This document shows, piece by piece, positions 8,219 through 38,307 of a DNA stretch of 38,307 nucleotides. Where the stretch lies: IMG/VR virus record IMGVR_UViG_3300045391_000521. One strand, given 5' to 3'. The translations under genes and the position numbers were made by a program. A model generated the notes under the pieces. That model was given only the letters and a program-made list of their open reading frames with translations. It searched no databases and had not been told where the DNA came from. Source of the DNA: a virus. Within the stretch, counting starts at the first letter, position 1, and every line of letters begins with the position of its first letter.

Positions 8219-9698
8219 GGATCTGCAACAACTGATGGAGCAGACGGGCGGACTACTTGGCCCCACGCAGCAGGACTTGGCTGAGGCGCGGTCGCGTGGT
8301 CTATTCAACCTCGGTGTTGGGCTCATGAGTGCCGGCGGCCAACGTGGCGGCCTCGGCCAGGGGCTGGCGGCCTATCAGCAAGCTCAAGACCAGTACCTGC
8401 AACAGCAGCGCAATCAGAAGCTCTCTGACATCGTACAAAGCGGAAAGATTGCCGATCTGCAAGACGAGGCCGAACAGCGCGCCACGCAGAAGCGCATGGC
8501 TCAGGAACTGGCCTCGCTCGATTGGAGCAAGCCGGAAGCGGCCGATGCCTACAAGCAGACGTTGTTGTCACAAGGCCGCGTGAAGGATGCACTGGCATTC
8601 GGCAAGCTGATGGGCGATGTGACTGGAGTTGGCGATGGCAAGGAATGGGGGCTGAATCCGCTGATCACTCCGGAAGGGGATGCATACGTTCTGTCCAAAA
8701 CAGGTCAGCAGCGTAAGCTGCCATTCCGGGTGAGTCCGAATTTCACCTATATGCAGGATGCCGGTGGCAACATCATGGCGATGCCAAGCCGGGGTACGCC
8801 TACGCCGCAAGCTGTTTCGGCTCCATCCGGAAACGGCCCCATGCAAGGCGAAAAGGCGGTTGATCGTCGCGAGGCTTACAACGCTGATTATACCCAGCTG
8901 CAAGGGGCCAAGAGTGGCCTTGATCGTCTCGCGCAAGCTGCTACGGAAGCGCTGAATGCTCCTGGCCTGAAGGGCGTGACTGGTATGCGTGGGATGTTGC
9001 CTGACGTCCCTGGATCAGATGCCGCGAATGCTAGAGCGAAACTTGAGACGCTGAAGTCGCAAGTGGCTTTTGGCGTATTGCAGGATATGCGCAATGCCTC
9101 AAAGACCGGCGGCGCGCTAGGCAGCGTTTCAGATGCGGAAGGGCGGCGCCTGGAAAGCAATTTGGCCGCACTCGCCAATTCGCAATCCGAAGAACAGATG
9201 CGCCAGAGCCTGCAAAAGATCGTCGAATACGCAAATTCTGCGAAGGGTCGAATGGAAGGCGCATTCTCGCTCAAATACGGGAATGGCCCTACTTCCGTAC
9301 CAACTGGGGCCGCTAGTCAGACTGGGCGTTTTCCCTCCGGATACGCAGGCGGTAACCAGCAAGCAGCAGATGCGCAACGCCTGGCAATCTTGGCCAATGA
9401 GTACCACAACGCACCGGACGATGCGACGCGGGAAGCCCGTATTCAGGAGGTGGATAACCTAGTTGCGGCCAACCCCGGTTTGGCAAAGCAGGCGCAAGCG
9501 CTAATGCAGGCTAATACTGGACGAGCAGCGGCTACTCCGCAGACGCAAAAGCGCGATCCAGCGTTTGATGCTGGCGTGCAGTGGCTGCGCAACAACGCAC
9601 GCATGATGCGCCCAGGCGATATGGTCAATGCACTACGCCGCAAAGGATGGAGTGACGCGGCTATTCGACGGGCCATGGAGACGGCGGGAGAGCAATAA
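8208..9698 (+). CDS. Putative internal virion or ejection protein (496 aa)
   Basis: GTG start with SD aagggaga, overlapping the upstream stop. Q/A-rich helical protein in the structural block. Confidence 0.6.
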   Translation: MAYEDLQQLMEQTGGLLGPTQQDLAEARSRGLFNLGVGLMSAGGQRGGLGQGLAAYQQAQDQYLQQQRNQKLSDIVQSGKIADLQDEAEQRATQKRMAQELASLDWSKPEAADAYKQTLLSQGRVKDALAFGKLMGDVTGVGDGKEWGLNPLITPEGDAYVLSKTGQQRKLPFRVSPNFTYMQDAGGNIMAMPSRGTPTPQAVSAPSGNGPMQGEKAVDRREAYNADYTQLQGAKSGLDRLAQAATEALNAPGLKGVTGMRGMLPDVPGSDAANARAKLETLKSQVAFGVLQDMRNASKTGGALGSVSDAEGRRLESNLAALANSQSEEQMRQSLQKIVEYANSAKGRMEGAFSLKYGNGPTSVPTGAASQTGRFPSGYAGGNQQAADAQRLAILANEYHNAPDDATREARIQEVDNLVAANPGLAKQAQALMQANTGRAAATPQTQKRDPAFDAGVQWLRNNARMMRPGDMVNALRRKGWSDAAIRRAMETAGEQ

Positions 9699-16131: not shown

Positions 16132-16349
16132 GCGCCGTCACCATCCTGGAAGGCGTGGAACTCGCCATTGACCTGCTCAACGCCATTACCGATCTGTCCG
16201 CCAAGGCATCTGCCGTGAGTGCCATCATCGCCAATGCGCAGAAGGAAGGCCGCGCTACGCTGACCGATGACGAGTGGGGACAGGTCACGTCTGCCTATAC
16301 CGACGCGCACGACCGGCTGAAGAAGGCCATTGAGGCCTCTGGCAACTGA
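16128..16349 (+). CDS. Hypothetical protein (73 aa), last gene of the late operon
   Basis: ATGA overlap with the lipoprotein gene. Soluble helical composition. Confidence 0.6.
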   Translation: MSAVTILEGVELAIDLLNAITDLSAKASAVSAIIANAQKEGRATLTDDEWGQVTSAYTDAHDRLKKAIEASGN

Positions 16350-16376
16350 ACAAAAAGAGACCGCCCGGAGGCGGCC
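16349..16376 (-). terminator. Intrinsic terminator of the early-left (-) transcript, downstream of the tRNA
   Basis: On the - strand: ggccgcc-uccg-ggcgguc followed by ucuuuuuguu. On the + strand the hairpin has no downstream U tract. Confidence 0.65.
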
Positions 16377-16407
16377 AAAGGTGAGTCCCAAGGTATTCAA
16401 AAAACTG

Positions 16408-16480
16408 TCACCGCGCCAGGATTCGAACCTGGGACATCCTGCTTCCAGGGCAGGCACTCTACCAGCTGAGCTACGCGGAG
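16408..16480 (-). tRNA. tRNA-Pro(UGG)-like, atypical anticodon loop
   Basis: Hand-folded cloverleaf: acceptor CTCCGCG/CGCGGTG (U2.U71 mismatch), D arm GCTC-AGCTGGTA-GAGT, anticodon arm CCTGC-CCTGGAA-GCAGG, variable ATGTC, T arm CCAGG-TTCGAAT-CCTGG, A73. C1-G72 plus A73 fit bacterial tRNA-Pro identity. Position 33 is C and position 37 is A. Confidence 0.7.
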
Positions 16481-17167
16481 AAACTGTTGTGGGCGGCCGG
16501 CTGGCAGTTGCCGGCTTACTCAGGTCGCGGCTTTTACTCCTGAGTCGTTTGTTTGAGGTGCCGGCTTTACGGCATCCTTGTCCGCATCAACATGGCGGCG
16601 CATCGCCACTGCGCGTCACCCACACAGAAACCGGCTGGCTTGGTACAAACTGGTTGTGCGGGCTTTCCGTTCAACCGGCTTCTGTGTGGATGCTGGCCCT
16701 TCCCCAGCACGTCCCATCTGGCACAGGCCAGTGGCGTAACCTCCTGCTTGGCCAGGAGGATTTCACGACCTTCCCGCAGTCGCTCACGTCCTCGTCACTG
16801 CTTTCCCTGTGAGGATCAGGGTTCAAATTACCGCCCATTTACCCGTGGGCGGCGCAGGCAGTGTCTGCGACCTGTCGGGGTACACACAAGACTGGCGACT
16901 AGGTGCCGATTCTCACCAATCAGAGCCACCTTAATTGGCTTCGGTCGGGACGATAGCTGGTGGCTTCCGGAACTACCGCCAATCGCCAGACTTGTGGGTA
17001 GTGGCCGAACCATCGCATAAGCTTTCGCCAACACTTGGAATCGAACCATGAGCCACTTGTAAGCGACCAAACCCGCCGGGGATGAGTGGGAAGGAATTGG
17101 GCCTAGCCGCTTACAGGTGGACCCTCGCGAGAGGGTGAGGCCATGGTGTCACATGGCCGTGTTCGTG
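16481..17167 (+). ncRNA. Candidate large structured noncoding RNA locus (class unknown, strand call tentative)
   Basis: No credible ORF. At least 15 helices were found by eye, including long-range closing helices 16620-16634/16675-16689, 16881-16898/16983-17000 and 17053-17065/17108-17120. Six G-T juxtapositions are valid wobbles only on the + strand, against one for the - strand. cUUCGg (16939-16944) and GCGA (17127-17130) tetraloops occur on the + strand. Confidence 0.4.
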
Positions 17168-17509
17168 TCAACCGAATGTTTCGTCGTCGAAGTGGTCGCC
17201 GTAGACGGACCGAACGAATGCGCGCATGCAGGCCTCAAGCGGCGTATCTCCGCTACCTTCGCAGCCGTTGCAAACCGCGTTGAATGTAGCCGATCCATCC
17301 GGAGCATCCAACCGCCACCACGCGTCAATATGCTCCTCGATGATGTGTCCGGCCTGATACCACTGCGTAGACGGTGAATAAGGGTGCGGGCCGCCGTCCT
17401 CGACGATGCAAACGTCCATGTGCTTGCCGATGCTGGCGGTGAAGCCCTGTGCACGGGCGACGGCTAGATCCAGCATGGAGCCGGAAAAGGTGGCTACTTC
17501 TTGGATCAT
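17168..17509 (-). CDS. NinX / DUF2591-like protein (113 aa)
   Basis: Start taken at the internal Met (MIQEVATFSGSMLDLAVARAQGF...) with an ATGA overlap to the upstream gene. The longer ORF-track N-terminus is Arg/Gly-rich shadow sequence. Confidence 0.55.
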   Translation of the reverse strand: MIQEVATFSGSMLDLAVARAQGFTASIGKHMDVCIVEDGGPHPYSPSTQWYQAGHIIEEHIDAWWRLDAPDGSATFNAVCNGCEGSGDTPLEACMRAFVRSVYGDHFDDETFG

Positions 17510-17769
17510 TCTTCCTCCTCCATCTCGCCGCGAGCCATGATCAGCGCCTCGCACTCGACCGCGAACTCCCCGCCGACGGTGCGCACGTCTTCGATGCACG
17601 CCTCGCGCTCGGCCACCATCCCCGCGCGGTAAACGAGCATGATCAGACCCACAATGTCGCCGCGCCACTCGTCCGTGCTGCAGAACTTGTCGTCGATGCC
17701 ACAGCAAGACCGGGTGCGCTTGAACCCCGCCTCCCGCGCCATGCGGATCACGTCGTCTCTCGTCATCAT
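17506..17769 (-). CDS. Hypothetical early protein (87 aa)
   Basis: Start at MMTRDDVIRMAREAGF. The upstream part of ORF 17506..17937 overlaps the tRNA-like element and looks non-coding. Confidence 0.55.
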   Translation of the reverse strand: MMTRDDVIRMAREAGFKRTRSCCGIDDKFCSTDEWRGDIVGLIMLVYRAGMVAEREACIEDVRTVGGEFAVECEALIMARGEMEEEE

Positions 17770-17778
17770 CACTCCTTG

Positions 17779-17856
17779 TGCAGGCGGCCGGAGTCGAACC
17801 GGCGTTACCATCATCAGCGGCGGCAGCACTGGGTAGAGAGGGCCGCTTACGCCCAC
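17779..17856 (-). ncRNA. tRNA-like element or degenerate tRNA (intact acceptor and T arm, possible GCC anticodon arm, no D arm)
   Basis: - strand: GTGGGCG...GCCGG-TTCGACT-CCGGC-CGCCTGC-A. The acceptor pairs 7/7 with two G.U pairs. Possible anticodon stem CAGTG/CGCTG with loop CTGCCGC. The D region does not pair and the variable region is 11 nt. Confidence 0.35.
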
Positions 17857-17864
17857 GTTGATCG

Positions 17865-18023
17865 TTACTCGTTCCACCACTCCGGGCACTTGCCCGTGAT
17901 CCACCATTGCTGGGTTTCTTCCCCTAGTTGCTCCCACGGCGGGTGGATTGACGGGTCTTCCTGGCGGGCGATGCAGGCTTCGTAGGCGGCTTTGGCGTGA
18001 TCTTCGGAGGTCTGGTTATCCAT
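17865..18023 (-). CDS. Hypothetical small Trp-rich protein (52 aa, below the ORF-track cutoff)
   Basis: ATG at 18023 with SD ggggtgagag. Reads MDNQTSEDHAKAAYEACIARQEDPSIHPPWEQLGEETQQWWITGKCPEWWNE. Confidence 0.45.
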   Translation of the reverse strand: MDNQTSEDHAKAAYEACIARQEDPSIHPPWEQLGEETQQWWITGKCPEWWNE

Positions 18024-18026
18024 CTC

Positions 18027-18218
18027 TCACCCCTTCGGAACACACAGCGCACGAACATTGGCAACGAGCTCGCCCACGTTGACGTTGAATTGTCCTTGCG
18101 CCGCCTTCGCTGCGAACATGCAAGCCGCTTTGGTGTCAAACTCTTGTATGGCCAGCGCTACTCCGCCCTTGTTGTAGCCAGTGCTATAGACCGTCAGAAT
18201 TAGAATCCACGCTTTCAT
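18027..18218 (-). CDS. Hypothetical small protein with hydrophobic N-terminus (63 aa)
   Basis: ORF MKAWILILTVYSTG..., tightly packed in the early-left operon. Confidence 0.55.
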   Translation of the reverse strand: MKAWILILTVYSTGYNKGGVALAIQEFDTKAACMFAAKAAQGQFNVNVGELVANVRALCVPKG

Positions 18219-26173: not shown

Positions 26174-26238
26174 TCCACGAACGCCACCGTCGCGAAGACG
26201 ATGACCACGATACCAAGCATCTCAAGTGCAGTGCGCAT
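26149..26238 (-). CDS. Possible 29-aa single-TM micropeptide
   Basis: ATG overlaps the upstream stop (TGATG). Reads MRTALEMLGIVVIVFATVAFVDWVLGMPL. Confidence 0.3.
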   Translation of the reverse strand: MRTALEMLGIVVIVFATVAFVDWVLGMPL

Positions 26239-26396
26239 CACCGGATCACCCAGAGGTAATCCATCTGCGCACTGCGGTAGCGGGTATACATCAGCGCAGC
26301 GTTCTCCCGGTCGAACTTCTCCGCCCATAGCCAACGCCAGAACGATTTTTCCAGCTCCCACCACATGCGCACGCGGCGCTTGAAACTTGCTTTCAT
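26238..26396 (-). CDS. Hypothetical small basic Trp-rich protein (52 aa, below the ORF-track cutoff)
   Basis: ATGA overlap with the stop of the Cro-like gene. Reads MKASFKRRVRMWWELEKSFWRWLWAEKFDRENAALMYTRYRSAQMDYLWVIR. Confidence 0.4.
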   Translation of the reverse strand: MKASFKRRVRMWWELEKSFWRWLWAEKFDRENAALMYTRYRSAQMDYLWVIR

Positions 26397-26599
26397 GATT
26401 CCTCCTCCCTGCGTGGATACAAGTCCGGACGCACCGTCTCGCGACGTAGGCCCGTCACCGACTCGAACGCTAGCACCCTCTCTGCCGGGACATGCCCGGT
26501 CATATACCAGCGGTGCACAGCTTGTCGCGTTACACCCATCTGCCTTGCCACTTCCGAAATACCGAGCGATTCAATCGCCAGTTTCACTGCTTCTTCCAT
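26393..26599 (-). CDS. Cro / YdaS-like helix-turn-helix regulator (68 aa), first gene of the early-left operon
   Basis: LGISEVARQMGVTRQAVHRWYMTGHVPAERV is a Cro/YdaS-type HTH. Sits right next to the divergent promoter region. Confidence 0.7.
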   Translation of the reverse strand: MEEAVKLAIESLGISEVARQMGVTRQAVHRWYMTGHVPAERVLAFESVTGLRRETVRPDLYPRREEES

Positions 26600-26630
26600 T
26601 GATGAGCCCCTGTTGGTGCCCGGCGATTGA

Positions 26631-26659
26631 ATGATGCACCACTCATCGCATCATGTCAA
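26631..26659 (-). promoter_or_regulatory. Candidate leftward sigma70 promoter (-35 TTGACA, 17-nt spacer, -10 CATCAT)
   Basis: Read on the - strand: TTGACA is the reverse complement of 26654-26659, and CATCAT is the reverse complement of 26631-26636. Confidence 0.5.
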
Positions 26660-26672
26660 CAACGCGTTGACA
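26654..26672. promoter_or_regulatory. Operator-like palindrome tgtcaac-aacgc-gttgaca spanning both -35 boxes
   Basis: Perfect 7-bp arms with a 5-bp spacer. Confidence 0.5.
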
Positions 26673-26695
26673 ACAGACTCACCAATGTTTACGAT
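26667..26695 (+). promoter_or_regulatory. Candidate rightward sigma70 promoter (-35 TTGACA, 17-nt spacer, -10 TACGAT)
   Basis: TTGACA at 26667-26672 and TACGAT at 26690-26695. The first + strand gene starts at 26729 with SD ggaga. Confidence 0.55.
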
Positions 26696-26728
26696 GAACT
26701 CACATCGACAACAACAGCGGAGACGGCC

Positions 26729-26878
26729 ATGTACATCAATCGCAGGAAGCACATCAGGCTCGATAACCCTCGTCTTGACGACTGGCGCAGCCTGATCCTG
26801 GCCATCGCGGCAACGGTGGCGTTTTCGGCGATTGGTGCGGTTGGCCTGTCTCTGCTGGCCTATCCGGGAGTGGCGTGA
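26729..26878 (+). CDS. Small membrane protein (49 aa), first gene of the early-right operon
   Basis: Internal Met MYINRRKHIRL with an SD. TM segment LILAIAATVAFSAIGAVGLSLLA. The ORF-track N-terminus would lie upstream of the predicted transcription start. Confidence 0.5.
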   Translation: MYINRRKHIRLDNPRLDDWRSLILAIAATVAFSAIGAVGLSLLAYPGVA

Positions 26879-36524: not shown

Positions 36525-38307
36525 ATGTCGCCTCTCGGGAATAATCGGTCTCCCATGACCGAAGATGAGCTTAGAGCGCTGACGGACTCCGAAATCTACA
36601 ACGCTCGCGGCTTCACTGACGTCGTCGCTTCTATGCGACGCGAGGCGCTGGAATTCTACTTCGGTGACCCGGTTGGTCGCCTTGCCCCCCCCGAAATCGA
36701 AGGTCGCTCCACAGTTGTTTCCACCGACGTTCAAGACACCATCGAATGGATGTTGCCATCGCTGCTGAAGATCTTCACGGCCGGCGACGATGTGGTTGAG
36801 TTCACGCCGAACGGCCCGGAAGACGAAGCCGGCGCCCGCCAGGCAACCGAGTACATCAACTACCTGTTCCGCAATCATCCTGACTCGTTCAATCTGCTGT
36901 ATTCCTGGATCAAAGACGGCCTGCTGGAGAAGCTCGGCATTGCCATGGTGTATTGGGACAGTACGCCCATCGAGCAGAATGAGACCTATCAAGGCCTATC
37001 TGACGCACAGATGACCATGCTGCTGTCTGATCCGGATGTGCGCCCGATTGCGCACGCGGTCCGCTACGTTGAGCAGCAGACAGAAATGCCAGGGATGGCA
37101 CCGGTTGACTCAGCTCAGCCAGCAGAGCATGACGTGACCATCCTGCGCACCACCAGCCGTGGGCGCCTCTGCTACGCCAGCATCGCGCCGGATGACTTCC
37201 TGTTGTCCCCTGCCGCCACTAGCATCAATGAGCCTGATTTGCCGTTCTGTGGGCACAAGGTGCGCAAATCCATCTCCGATCTGCGCAAAGCCGGCTATGA
37301 GAACGTCGATGAACTGGTCTCCGACATGGAGACGATGGGCTGGACGGATGATGCGCGCTATCGTTATGCGGATAGCCGCTACGAGCAGGAAATATACGAA
37401 CCAGCCGATCCGAATGCTCGGCTTGTCTGGTTGACCGAATGCTACATCCGCTGCGATTACGACGGAGATGGCATCGCCGAGTTGCGCCGTGTCCTGCGGG
37501 CCGGAAATCACATCCTGGAAAACATCGAGGTAGACGACCACCCGTATTCGACGTTCTGCCCGGTCCCGATTACTCACCGTGTCATTGGCCTGTCCGTCGC
37601 TGACCTCGCCATCGAAAGCCAGCGTATCAAGACCGCTGTGCAGCGCGCTGTCTTGGATAACTTCTGGCTGTCGGTCAACAAGCGGATGGGCGTCCTAGAT
37701 GGGCAAGTCAACCTCGATGATGTGCTGGATTCCCGCCCCGGCGGCGTGATCCGCATGAAGAGCCTGAATGCACTGATGCCGATTGAGCAGTCCGGTATTG
37801 GTGGCGACGCCATGGGGCTGCTGGAGTACTTGGAGAGCCAGAAGGAAAATCGCACCGGCTTCACCCGCTATTCACAGGGCGTTGGTGCGGACAGCCTGAA
37901 CAAGACCGCGACCGGCATCAACGTCATCACCAACCGCTCAGACCAGCGCGTCGAGCTGATTGCACGACTGTTCGCCGAGTCGATGAAGCTGCTGTTCCGC
38001 AAGACGCTTGCGCTGATCATCAAACACCAAGATCGCAAGGCCGTTTATCGGCTGCGCAACCAATGGATCGAAGTTGACCCGTCCGAGTGGCGCAACAACT
38101 ATGACATGGAAGTATCGGTAGGCCTCGGCACAGGCAACAAGGACCAGCAGGTCCAGCACCTGATGATGCTGATCCAACAAATGCAGCAGATGCTTCCACT
38201 GGGCATCACTGACCCGCAGAAGATCGCTAATGCGGCCAGCAAGCTGACCCAGGCGCTGGGCTTCAAATCGCCTGAGCAGTTCTTCTCCGAGCCTGACCCC
38301 AATGCAC
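36525..38307 (+). CDS. Portal protein, N-terminal and central part (open at the window end, continues at 70..401)
   Basis: ATG at 36525. No stop before the window end. Motif STDVQDTIEWMLPSLLKIF is typical of podovirus head-tail connector/portal proteins. Follows terL. Confidence 0.85.
   Translation, partial: MSPLGNNRSPMTEDELRALTDSEIYNARGFTDVVASMRREALEFYFGDPVGRLAPPEIEGRSTVVSTDVQDTIEWMLPSLLKIFTAGDDVVEFTPNGPEDEAGARQATEYINYLFRNHPDSFNLLYSWIKDGLLEKLGIAMVYWDSTPIEQNETYQGLSDAQMTMLLSDPDVRPIAHAVRYVEQQTEMPGMAPVDSAQPAEHDVTILRTTSRGRLCYASIAPDDFLLSPAATSINEPDLPFCGHKVRKSISDLRKAGYENVDELVSDMETMGWTDDARYRYADSRYEQEIYEPADPNARLVWLTECYIRCDYDGDGIAELRRVLRAGNHILENIEVDDHPYSTFCPVPITHRVIGLSVADLAIESQRIKTAVQRAVLDNFWLSVNKRMGVLDGQVNLDDVLDSRPGGVIRMKSLNALMPIEQSGIGGDAMGLLEYLESQKENRTGFTRYSQGVGADSLNKTATGINVITNRSDQRVELIARLFAESMKLLFRKTLALIIKHQDRKAVYRLRNQWIEVDPSEWRNNYDMEVSVGLGTGNKDQQVQHLMMLIQQMQQMLPLGITDPQKIANAASKLTQALGFKSPEQFFSEPDPNA
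38239..38307. repeat. Terminal overlap copy 2, identical to 1-69
   Basis: Same 69-nt string as the window start. It lies inside the portal reading frame. Confidence 0.95.

Follow-up and report, generated by a model that had tools for sequence, protein, structure and literature searches.

A candidate phage RNA motif with paired hairpin loops in a non-coding stretch beside a tRNA-Pro gene

Why does a phage genome hold 687 nt without a credible open reading frame (ORF) at the point where two of its operons converge? The window that we analyzed, the whole of a 38,307-nt virus record (IMGVR_UViG_3300045391_000521), is a complete, circularly assembled phage genome, with a 69-nt terminal overlap and a portal-sized ORF across the junction. 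The phage is a lambdoid-style podovirus that encodes an SU10-type capsid, a Terminase_3 large subunit, a DnaB helicase, a DUF1376 protein, and Ead/Ea22-like and NinX-like proteins. Its plus-strand late and lysis genes finish at 16349 (the last plus-strand stop), and its minus-strand early-left block finishes with the NinX-like gene at 17168. Between these convergent operons are a tRNA-Pro gene and the 687 nt in question. An earlier reading of the sequence by eye (the original prediction) had proposed a large structured RNA of 0.69 kb, read from the plus strand. The locus is laid out as follows:

16350-16376, minus strand: intrinsic terminator of the minus-strand transcript (stem-loop GGCCGCCUCCGGGCGGUC at 16376-16359, then UCUUUUUGUU)
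16407-16480, minus strand: tRNA-Pro with anticodon UGG (ARAGORN; Rfam RF00005, 59.6 bits)
16481-17167, minus strand: ORF-free structured stretch, with no minus-strand terminator-like site between the NinX-like stop and the tRNA
16527-16548, plus strand: weak terminator-like hairpin, then TTGTTTGAGG (from a consensus scan only)
17168-17707, minus strand: NinX-like gene (Pfam PF10765), the upstream gene of the same transcript; gene callers picked a 113-aa version (protein P0001)

The tRNA-Pro at 16407-16480 forms a cloverleaf with T and D arms and its anticodon. It has C1-G72, A73, and a U2.U71 mismatch, does not encode CCA, and is 87% identical to the tRNA-Pro of Pseudomonas Bruynogheviruses. 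The minus-strand terminator lies 30 nt downstream on the same strand and is the only strong one in the area; in particular, there is no strong terminator on the minus strand between the NinX-like gene and the tRNA. We infer that transcription from the early-left operon crosses 16481-17167 and continues past the tRNA to the terminator. The weak plus-strand hairpin is possibly a stop for read-through from the late operon.

Does the stretch encode a protein? Between the stop at 16349 and the NinX-like gene we found shadow ORFs only, as the original prediction had held, and one of the two long plus-strand ORFs overlaps the tRNA. Six-frame translations of the region did not match any Pfam family at E ≤ 1, so that neither an integrase remnant nor any other protein-domain remnant was recognized. 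The same translations had no match in a collection of 5.8 billion proteins, although this is a weak negative because the search also missed the region's own called 143-aa ORF. No integrase domain was found in the 30 ORFs of the window that we scanned, which left no unscanned ORF of more than 300 aa outside the structural module. When the region was compared by blastn to the INPHARED phage and PLSDB plasmid collections, there was no match, and a 1-kb query matched through its tRNA only. The 687 nt are non-coding, with no credible ORF or protein remnant.

The stretch is densely structured. All 14 of the local hairpins that had been paired by eye fold as described, and the three long-range helices are real; they extend beyond the bounds first given and are inverted repeats of 18 to 22 nt. 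The main elements are these:

16497-16681, plus strand: five copies of CCGGCT(G/T) in the same orientation (AGCCGG on the minus strand), most of them in hairpin arms
16617-16637 with 16672-16692, minus strand: long hairpin I1, with 21-nt arms and 3 G.U pairs on this strand
16881-16898 with 16983-17000, minus strand: long helix I3, an inverted repeat that closes the conserved domain described below (there called P1)
17053-17074 with 17099-17120, minus strand: long hairpin I2, with 22-nt arms and 21 of 22 positions paired, including 4 G.U (4 A.C on the plus strand)
17122-17135 and 17139-17158, minus strand: two short hairpins just after the NinX-like stop codon, neither followed by a U-tract

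The recurrence of CCGGCT(G/T) was also borne out: 5 copies fall within 185 nt, compared to 35 on both strands of the whole window (2 x 38.3 kb). A T-arm-like sequence (GGAATCGAACC) is present at 17037-17047, and an anticodon-arm-like repeat at 16739-16749.

As a whole, the region folds better than 200 dinucleotide shuffles on both strands, with minimum-free-energy (MFE) z scores of -6.03 (minus) and -3.55 (plus). Every sub-part has a z score of -3.3 to -4.9 on the minus strand, while coding controls range from -0.9 to +2.2. The genome's other stretch without an ORF of at least 100 aa (26174-26874) folds about as well (z = -3.4 to -4.0), so the thermodynamic excess alone is not specific to 16481-17167. 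Structure outside the conserved module that we describe below may be generic.

To learn which parts are conserved, relatives of the locus are needed. The NinX-like protein had no relatives: three other contigs contain it, and since these are 100% identical to the window, no variation was gained. Relatives of the endolysin or of tail proteins had in common with the window only that gene or only the structural module, and none of them had the region. Conservation was found when the translation of a shadow ORF was used as a degenerate DNA probe, which led to a viral contig (L015); a longer copy of the same phage (L018) is present in a metagenome collection. Window positions 16906-16978 are 85% identical over 73 nt to L015 5084-5156 (L018 4660-4732), with a 28-nt identical core. 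The two phages are unrelated: the second has a G+C content of about 40%, a different terminase, homing endonucleases, and Ant-type regulators. Its copy lies in a 661-nt ORF-free stretch (53% G+C; z = -4.4), which is directly downstream of a tRNA-Arg(UCU) on the same strand and upstream of the terminase genes.

A pattern taken from an internal loop of these first two copies led to a third carrier, L020. A covariance model (CM) built from the first two sequences scores 126.7 and 132.5 bits on them and 43.6 bits on L020. In comparison, scans of genomes found nothing at first and then, on a second pass, four chance-like matches, of which three were in apparent coding sequence and two scored about 16 bits. 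Since those matches, to essentially the same pattern, score so much lower, L020 is not a chance match. Searching viral contigs with the 26-nt core and with a loop and junction pattern recovered only the L015 contig, and a metagenome scan found only the L015 phage again. In total, we found three carriers across the viral, metagenome, and genome collections that were scanned. 16881-17000 therefore recurs in two unrelated phage contigs.

In L020, the module stands within a cloverleaf, where the anticodon and variable arms would be, and there is no long closing helix. The cloverleaf has the acceptor stem GGGAGCG/CGCUUCC (with G3.U70 and A73), a D-arm-like segment, and a canonical T arm. Both of its ends align to the Rfam tmRNA model, with a score (27.5 bits; E = 4.8e-9) that falls short of the model's gathering score (47 bits). 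About 180 nt further on is another tRNA-like element, which is smaller. The locus is in an early operon, between exonuclease/RecT-like genes and a replisome-organizer gene, and its ORF-free stretch is only about 470 nt, built around the tRNA-like elements. All three carriers have a same-strand context that fits co-transcription. The module is upstream of a tRNA in the window, downstream of one in L018, and, in L020, within a tRNA-like scaffold. It is linked to tRNAs in all three phages, and because this happens in three different ways, the link may be loose.

Read on the minus strand, both the window copy and the L015/L018 copy fold as a three-way junction:

16881-17000, minus strand: conserved three-way-junction domain of about 115 nt (z = -4.7), closed by P1 (16881-16898 with 16983-17000)
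16951-16978, minus strand: hairpin A, with an 8-bp stem (16971-16978 with 16951-16958) and the 12-nt loop CCGGAAGCCACC (16959-16970)
16945-16948 with 16906-16909, minus strand: lower helix of hairpin B, CCGA/UCGG, invariant in the three sequences
16940-16944 and 16910-16914, minus strand: internal loop of hairpin B, CCGAA / GAGAA, invariant in the three sequences
16932-16939 with 16915-16922, minus strand: upper 8-bp helix of hairpin B, with 3 pairs changed on both sides
16923-16931, minus strand: 9-nt loop of hairpin B (16906-16948), AGGUGGCUC, which contains GGUGGC
16925-16964, minus strand: kissing loop-loop helix, GCCACC (16959-16964) with GGUGGC (16925-16930)

The 12-nt loop of hairpin A ends in GCCACC, and a two-nucleotide linker joins hairpins A and B. 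P1 is 17 to 21 bp long (17 to 18 bp in the window copy); its sequence differs between the window and L018 phages, and both versions pair. The junction strands differ as well (UUGG and CACCUAG in the window versus U and GU in L018), which argues against a catalytic core or ligand pocket centered on the junction. The stem of hairpin A and the upper helix of hairpin B are equal in length (8 bp), which would fit hairpins that lie side by side and pair within one molecule.

Do the differences between the copies preserve this fold? The 73-nt core has 11 substitutions, with no synonymous bias in the frame in which it was read, a pattern unlike that of coding DNA: three are in loops and eight keep the pairing. 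Between the first two sequences, 98.6% of cells are paired and all six variable pairs are compensated, compared to zero or one when the partners are slid; in the alignable part of P1 there are 3 compensatory pairs. When L020 is added, 93.7% of cells are paired and 17 pairs have changed on both sides, versus 6.0 +/- 1.9 in shuffles (none of 500 reached 17) and 0 to 3 in slid controls; these statistics rest on three sequences, and the pattern that led to the third came from the first two. In hairpin A, 100% of the cells are paired across the three sequences, 4 pairs have changed on both sides, and the third pair is G.U in every copy. The kissing helix is outside the CM. Nevertheless, L020 keeps 5 of its 6 pairs, 3 of which have changed on both sides (CACUC/GAGUG) and are counted among the 17, and this is independent support for the loop-loop contact.

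Judged by compensatory substitutions in independent lineages, albeit three sequences, 16881-17000 is an RNA element kept by selection. The domain that the original prediction had closed with 16881-16898 and 16983-17000 is the part with the 17 two-sided changes. We regard it as a candidate for a new RNA motif of phages, and covariation backs the model of its fold.

Which strand is the RNA? A large structured RNA on the plus strand would draw on several observations: that strand also beats shuffles (z = -3.55), read-through from the late operon may reach the region, and short local hairpins include five G/T juxtapositions that can be wobbles on the plus strand alone. The seven G/T or A/C positions from which the original prediction chose its strand are indeed as it gave them, and the bases are real, but the plus-strand wobbles lie in short local hairpins, and two of them sit in alternative pairings that the comparison of carriers does not support. 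As to a second cue, the cUUCGg loop, its hairpin gains an A.C mismatch in L015/L018, and on the minus strand these bases belong to the conserved internal loop (CCGAAG). Across I1, I2, and the conserved helices, G.U pairs favor the minus strand by 11 to 1; that is, 11 of 12 wobble-type positions in long or conserved helices work only on the minus strand and become A.C on the plus strand. In the conserved model from two sequences, all eight G.U cells become A.C mismatches on the plus strand, and each conserved hairpin receives 2 to 3 of them. Also, on the plus strand the CM scored just 25 bits in L018 and had no match in the window. The minus strand has the tRNA and the only strong terminator, its z score is much the stronger, and both the 11:1 tally and the eight G.U cells agree; hence the RNA strand is minus, not plus. 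We consider the plus-strand RNA extremely improbable, and the strand call drawn from the juxtapositions was wrong.

Another explanation for the hairpins is decay: the region might be a dead integrase or other ORF, or else a tRNA island that has degraded, so that its dense hairpins are leftovers of cloverleaf arms. PaP3-type phages have four tandem tRNAs, the last of which is a similar tRNA-Pro; the T-arm-like and anticodon-arm-like sequences noted above could be such leftovers, and the L020 module is within a tRNA-like scaffold. However, there is no second tRNA or tRNA-like match in the region at E ≤ 10, and there is no protein-domain remnant. The module is also 85% identical between phages of 60% and 40% G+C, with compensatory changes, which shows purifying selection and not decay. 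We view decay as very unlikely.

How far does the conserved RNA extend? The whole 0.69 kb might be one large, ornate minus-strand RNA of the GOLLD or ROOL kind, with the module as its core and its loops pairing between molecules to form a multimer. GOLLD and ROOL are phage RNAs that are often found near tRNA islands and that multimerize through kissing loops (PMC12286853). In support of this, every sub-part of the region beats shuffles on the minus strand, and the stretch in L018 is of nearly equal length, is enriched in G+C (53% versus about 40%), folds well, and abuts a tRNA. Nevertheless, a local alignment of the module's flanks (about 570 nt) between the window and L018 found nothing above the shuffled background; the module is 167 nt from the 5' end of the ORF-free stretch in the window versus about 254 nt in L018; and the stretch in L020 is far shorter, around tRNA-like elements. 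The Rfam models for GOLLD and ROOL did not match even at E ≤ 10, and the equal 8-bp stems fit pairing within a molecule. Because the flanks have no similarity between carriers, a single 0.69-kb ornate RNA is unproven, and we think it unlikely. Of the original call of a large structured RNA, the structure holds up, and a part of about 115 nt is conserved; the flanks are not alike between carriers.

The likeness to GOLLD and ROOL that the original prediction had raised is one of setting. The locus is phage encoded, next to a tRNA gene, and in an ORF-free stretch of 0.6 to 0.8 kb with many helices and a loop-loop contact, as those RNAs are (PMC12286853), and the same is true of L018. However, the window does not match either Rfam model, and about 115 nt are conserved rather than the entire stretch. 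GOLLD and ROOL are an analogy of context only, not a relationship.

A role for the DNA itself also has to be considered: the region might mark a terminus of the genome or serve in packaging, attachment, or recombination, or it might be a single-strand origin, at what is the attP/int junction in lambdoid phages. Two independent contigs (L002 and L003) both stop exactly at 16649, which is inside the I1 loop; the five CCGGCT(G/T) copies in 185 bp resemble protein-binding sites; in a distant relative (L012), the corresponding late/early-left junction contains a Phage_integrase gene; and the stretch in L018 is upstream of terminase genes. Yet the contig ends and the repeats concern 16497-16692, not the conserved module. 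Also, no ORF outside the structural module is long enough for a tyrosine integrase, there is no remnant of one in the region, and the window's terminase gene, which is of the classical type, is 18 kb from the module. Finally, the helices change in sequence while pairing is kept, and the wobbles are strand specific, which indicates a folded single-stranded molecule and not a duplex binding site. A DNA-level element seems decidedly unlikely for the region overall; such a role is possible for the left 200 bp (the CCGGCT repeats and 16649) and unlikely for the module.

Is the module a known RNA? We ran cmscan with Rfam 15, using gathering scores for the window as a whole and a cutoff of E ≤ 10 for 16250-17350, and the tRNA was the sole real match. 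Rfam 15 covers GOLLD, ROOL, RNase P, tmRNA, group I and II introns, self-cleaving ribozymes, pRNA, SRP, and 5S RNA, and none of these matched, in agreement with the original failure to recognize RNase P, tmRNA, or group I/II introns by eye. In L018 and L020, Rfam found only tRNAs and the subthreshold tmRNA match in L020. We set aside a match to archaeal RNase P in L018 as noise (10.3 bits, E = 3.4). Resemblances to RNase P, 5S RNA, and the SRP Alu domain are at the level of words and have no Rfam support. Hammerheads and K-turns were ruled out: the internal loop is off consensus, and conservation does not extend to the junction strands.

Four known systems resemble the locus in part. First, tmRNA and tRNA-like RNAs: the L020 module is in a cloverleaf with G3.U70, A73, and a canonical T arm, and the window and L018 copies adjoin real tRNAs. 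The window copy differs in that it has no acceptor stem or T arm (ARAGORN and the Rfam tRNA and tmRNA models found neither, and no match, in 16481-17167) and is closed by a helix of 17 to 18 bp. Even in L020, the tmRNA score is below the gathering score, and the element has no mRNA-like part.

Second, the pRNA of phi29 is about 120 nt, with a closing helix, a three-way junction, and two hairpins with complementary loops, and the module shares all of these features, including the size. However, the module does not match pRNA in Rfam, the window has a classical terminase that is encoded 18 kb away, and pRNA loops pair between molecules, whereas the module's geometry fits one molecule.

Third, riboswitches of the purine type have a closing helix and two hairpins with equal stems and paired loops, as the module does. 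In contrast to these, the module's junction strands are not conserved, its conserved residues are in the internal loop of a hairpin, and it is not ahead of a ribosome-binding site or terminator that it could control.

Fourth, the locus has the same map position as the attP/int/sib region of lambda, at the convergence of the late and early-left operons, where the distant relative has its integrase. The window differs in having no integrase gene or remnant, and its conserved part is a covarying RNA fold that also occurs in phages with other layouts. The sib element of lambda is an RNase III site, and the long hairpins here could likewise be RNase III sites.

The module may already be among the unnamed candidates in a catalogue of 10,006 csRNA, which includes thousands of unnamed candidate phage RNAs from IMG/VR (PMC10690425).

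Overall, we think it probable that these 687 nt form a non-coding tail on the early-left transcript of the minus strand and contain one conserved functional RNA module (16881-17000). The lack of coding, the minus-strand structure, its conservation, and its covariation are shown by the data above, while transcription, processing, and a binding partner are inferred. The transcript would run from the NinX-like gene through the structured spacer and the tRNA-Pro to the intrinsic terminator. Normal tRNA processing would release the module, in that the RNase P cut at the 5' end of the tRNA would also be the 3' end of the upstream RNA. The module consists of a long closing helix and two hairpins with 8-bp stems, whose loops pair over 5 to 6 bp, plus one invariant internal loop of 5 x 5 nt. 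It would fold into a compact body, like a tRNA elbow or a riboswitch, and act as an RNA. The remainder (I1, I2, and the smaller hairpins) is lineage specific; its role is probably in processing, stability, or termination where the two operons converge.

What might the module do? To judge from the G+C content of the three carriers (about 60%, 40%, and 64%), their hosts differ. A kissing body and an invariant internal loop that are universal across differing hosts suggest a widely conserved partner, and the tRNA-like scaffold in L020 points to tRNA metabolism. Most likely, the module would serve as a binding site or as a decoy, and its target would be a host factor in tRNA metabolism that is widely conserved.

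A bolder reading, which we hold only tentatively and think unlikely, is that the module belongs to an undescribed family that descends from a tRNA- or tmRNA-like ancestor and mimics the tRNA elbow to capture or mislead a conserved host factor, or else that in the window it is the core of a new ornate RNA of 0.7 kb. Under the elbow-mimic reading, the host factor could be an enzyme that processes or modifies tRNA, a factor of trans-translation, or a defense nuclease that targets tRNA. An alanine-type acceptor stem and a T arm persist in L020.

Many structured phage RNAs have no assigned role, and the large ones that have been studied, GOLLD and ROOL, form striking RNA-only assemblies. To these, the locus adds a compact candidate module with a helix-by-helix model and compensatory changes that include a tertiary loop-loop contact. 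The module is present in three unrelated phages and is always co-oriented with neighboring genes or tRNAs. The corrections to strand and extent matter, as the original call would misdirect experiments; at about 115 nt, the module is open to direct tests. More broadly, the copy within an alanine-type tRNA-like scaffold in L020 gives a concrete lead to tRNA mimicry.

The window is a complete genome of about 38.2 kb, assembled as a circle: it has a direct terminal overlap of 69 nt (1-69 are identical to 38239-38307), and a portal-sized ORF of 731 amino acids runs across the end junction. Within this genome, position 16649 is the exact shared terminus of two independently assembled contigs from the same phage:

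L002 (JGI), 3,599 nt, stops at 16649
L003 (Logan), 966 nt, stops at 16649

Position 16649 falls within the loop of a 21-bp inverted repeat (I1, 16617-16692), and the terminus could reflect a physical end of the DNA, a drop in coverage at the hairpin, or a branch in the assembly.

Two other sites in the window deserve mention. First, the minus-strand sequence CAUGGUUCGAUUCCAAG (17033-17049) resembles a T arm and is similar to that of the adjacent tRNA-Pro (repeat D4); neither ARAGORN nor Rfam called a tRNA at this site. Second, 26174-26874, which lies between the diverging early-left and early-right blocks, is another stretch of about 0.7 kb with no ORF of at least 100 amino acids, and it may hold small regulator genes. 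Its folding energy, relative to dinucleotide shuffles, gave z of -3.4 to -4.0 on both strands.

L012, a distant relative with a P22-type coat and an SU10-type adaptor, has a Phage_integrase gene (17099-18097) precisely at the junction between its convergent late and early-left blocks. Outside its structural module, the window phage contains no ORF of the length that a tyrosine integrase requires. In Pseudomonas phage PaP3, 1.6 kb without annotated features (L004 3330-4956, or 1-1627 of the record) adjoins a tRNA array in the order Asn-Asp-Tyr-Pro, whose tRNA-Pro is 87% identical to that of the window. The covariance model of the kissing-hairpin module (R1) found no copy of the module in this unannotated stretch.

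The unrelated phage contig L018 carries the module downstream of a tRNA-Arg. Reading by eye, we noted two further features in L018:

5088-6026, iteron-like repeats upstream of a replication-initiator-like gene: three of the caatttgacggtctga type, two of catcatcagtaatataaca, and several of atttgcacc
immediately upstream of tRNA-Arg, minus strand, a sigma-70-like promoter (TTGACA-17-TAAAAT)

Another carrier of the module, viral contig IMGVR_UViG_3300014656_006064 (L020), contains two tRNA/tmRNA-like elements, neither of which was called by ARAGORN:

8608-8736, minus strand, first element
8366-8424, minus strand, second element

Both elements have an alanine-type acceptor stem (G3.U70 and A73) and the T arm GCGGGUUCGACUCCCGC. 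In the first, the kissing-hairpin module replaces the anticodon and variable arms.
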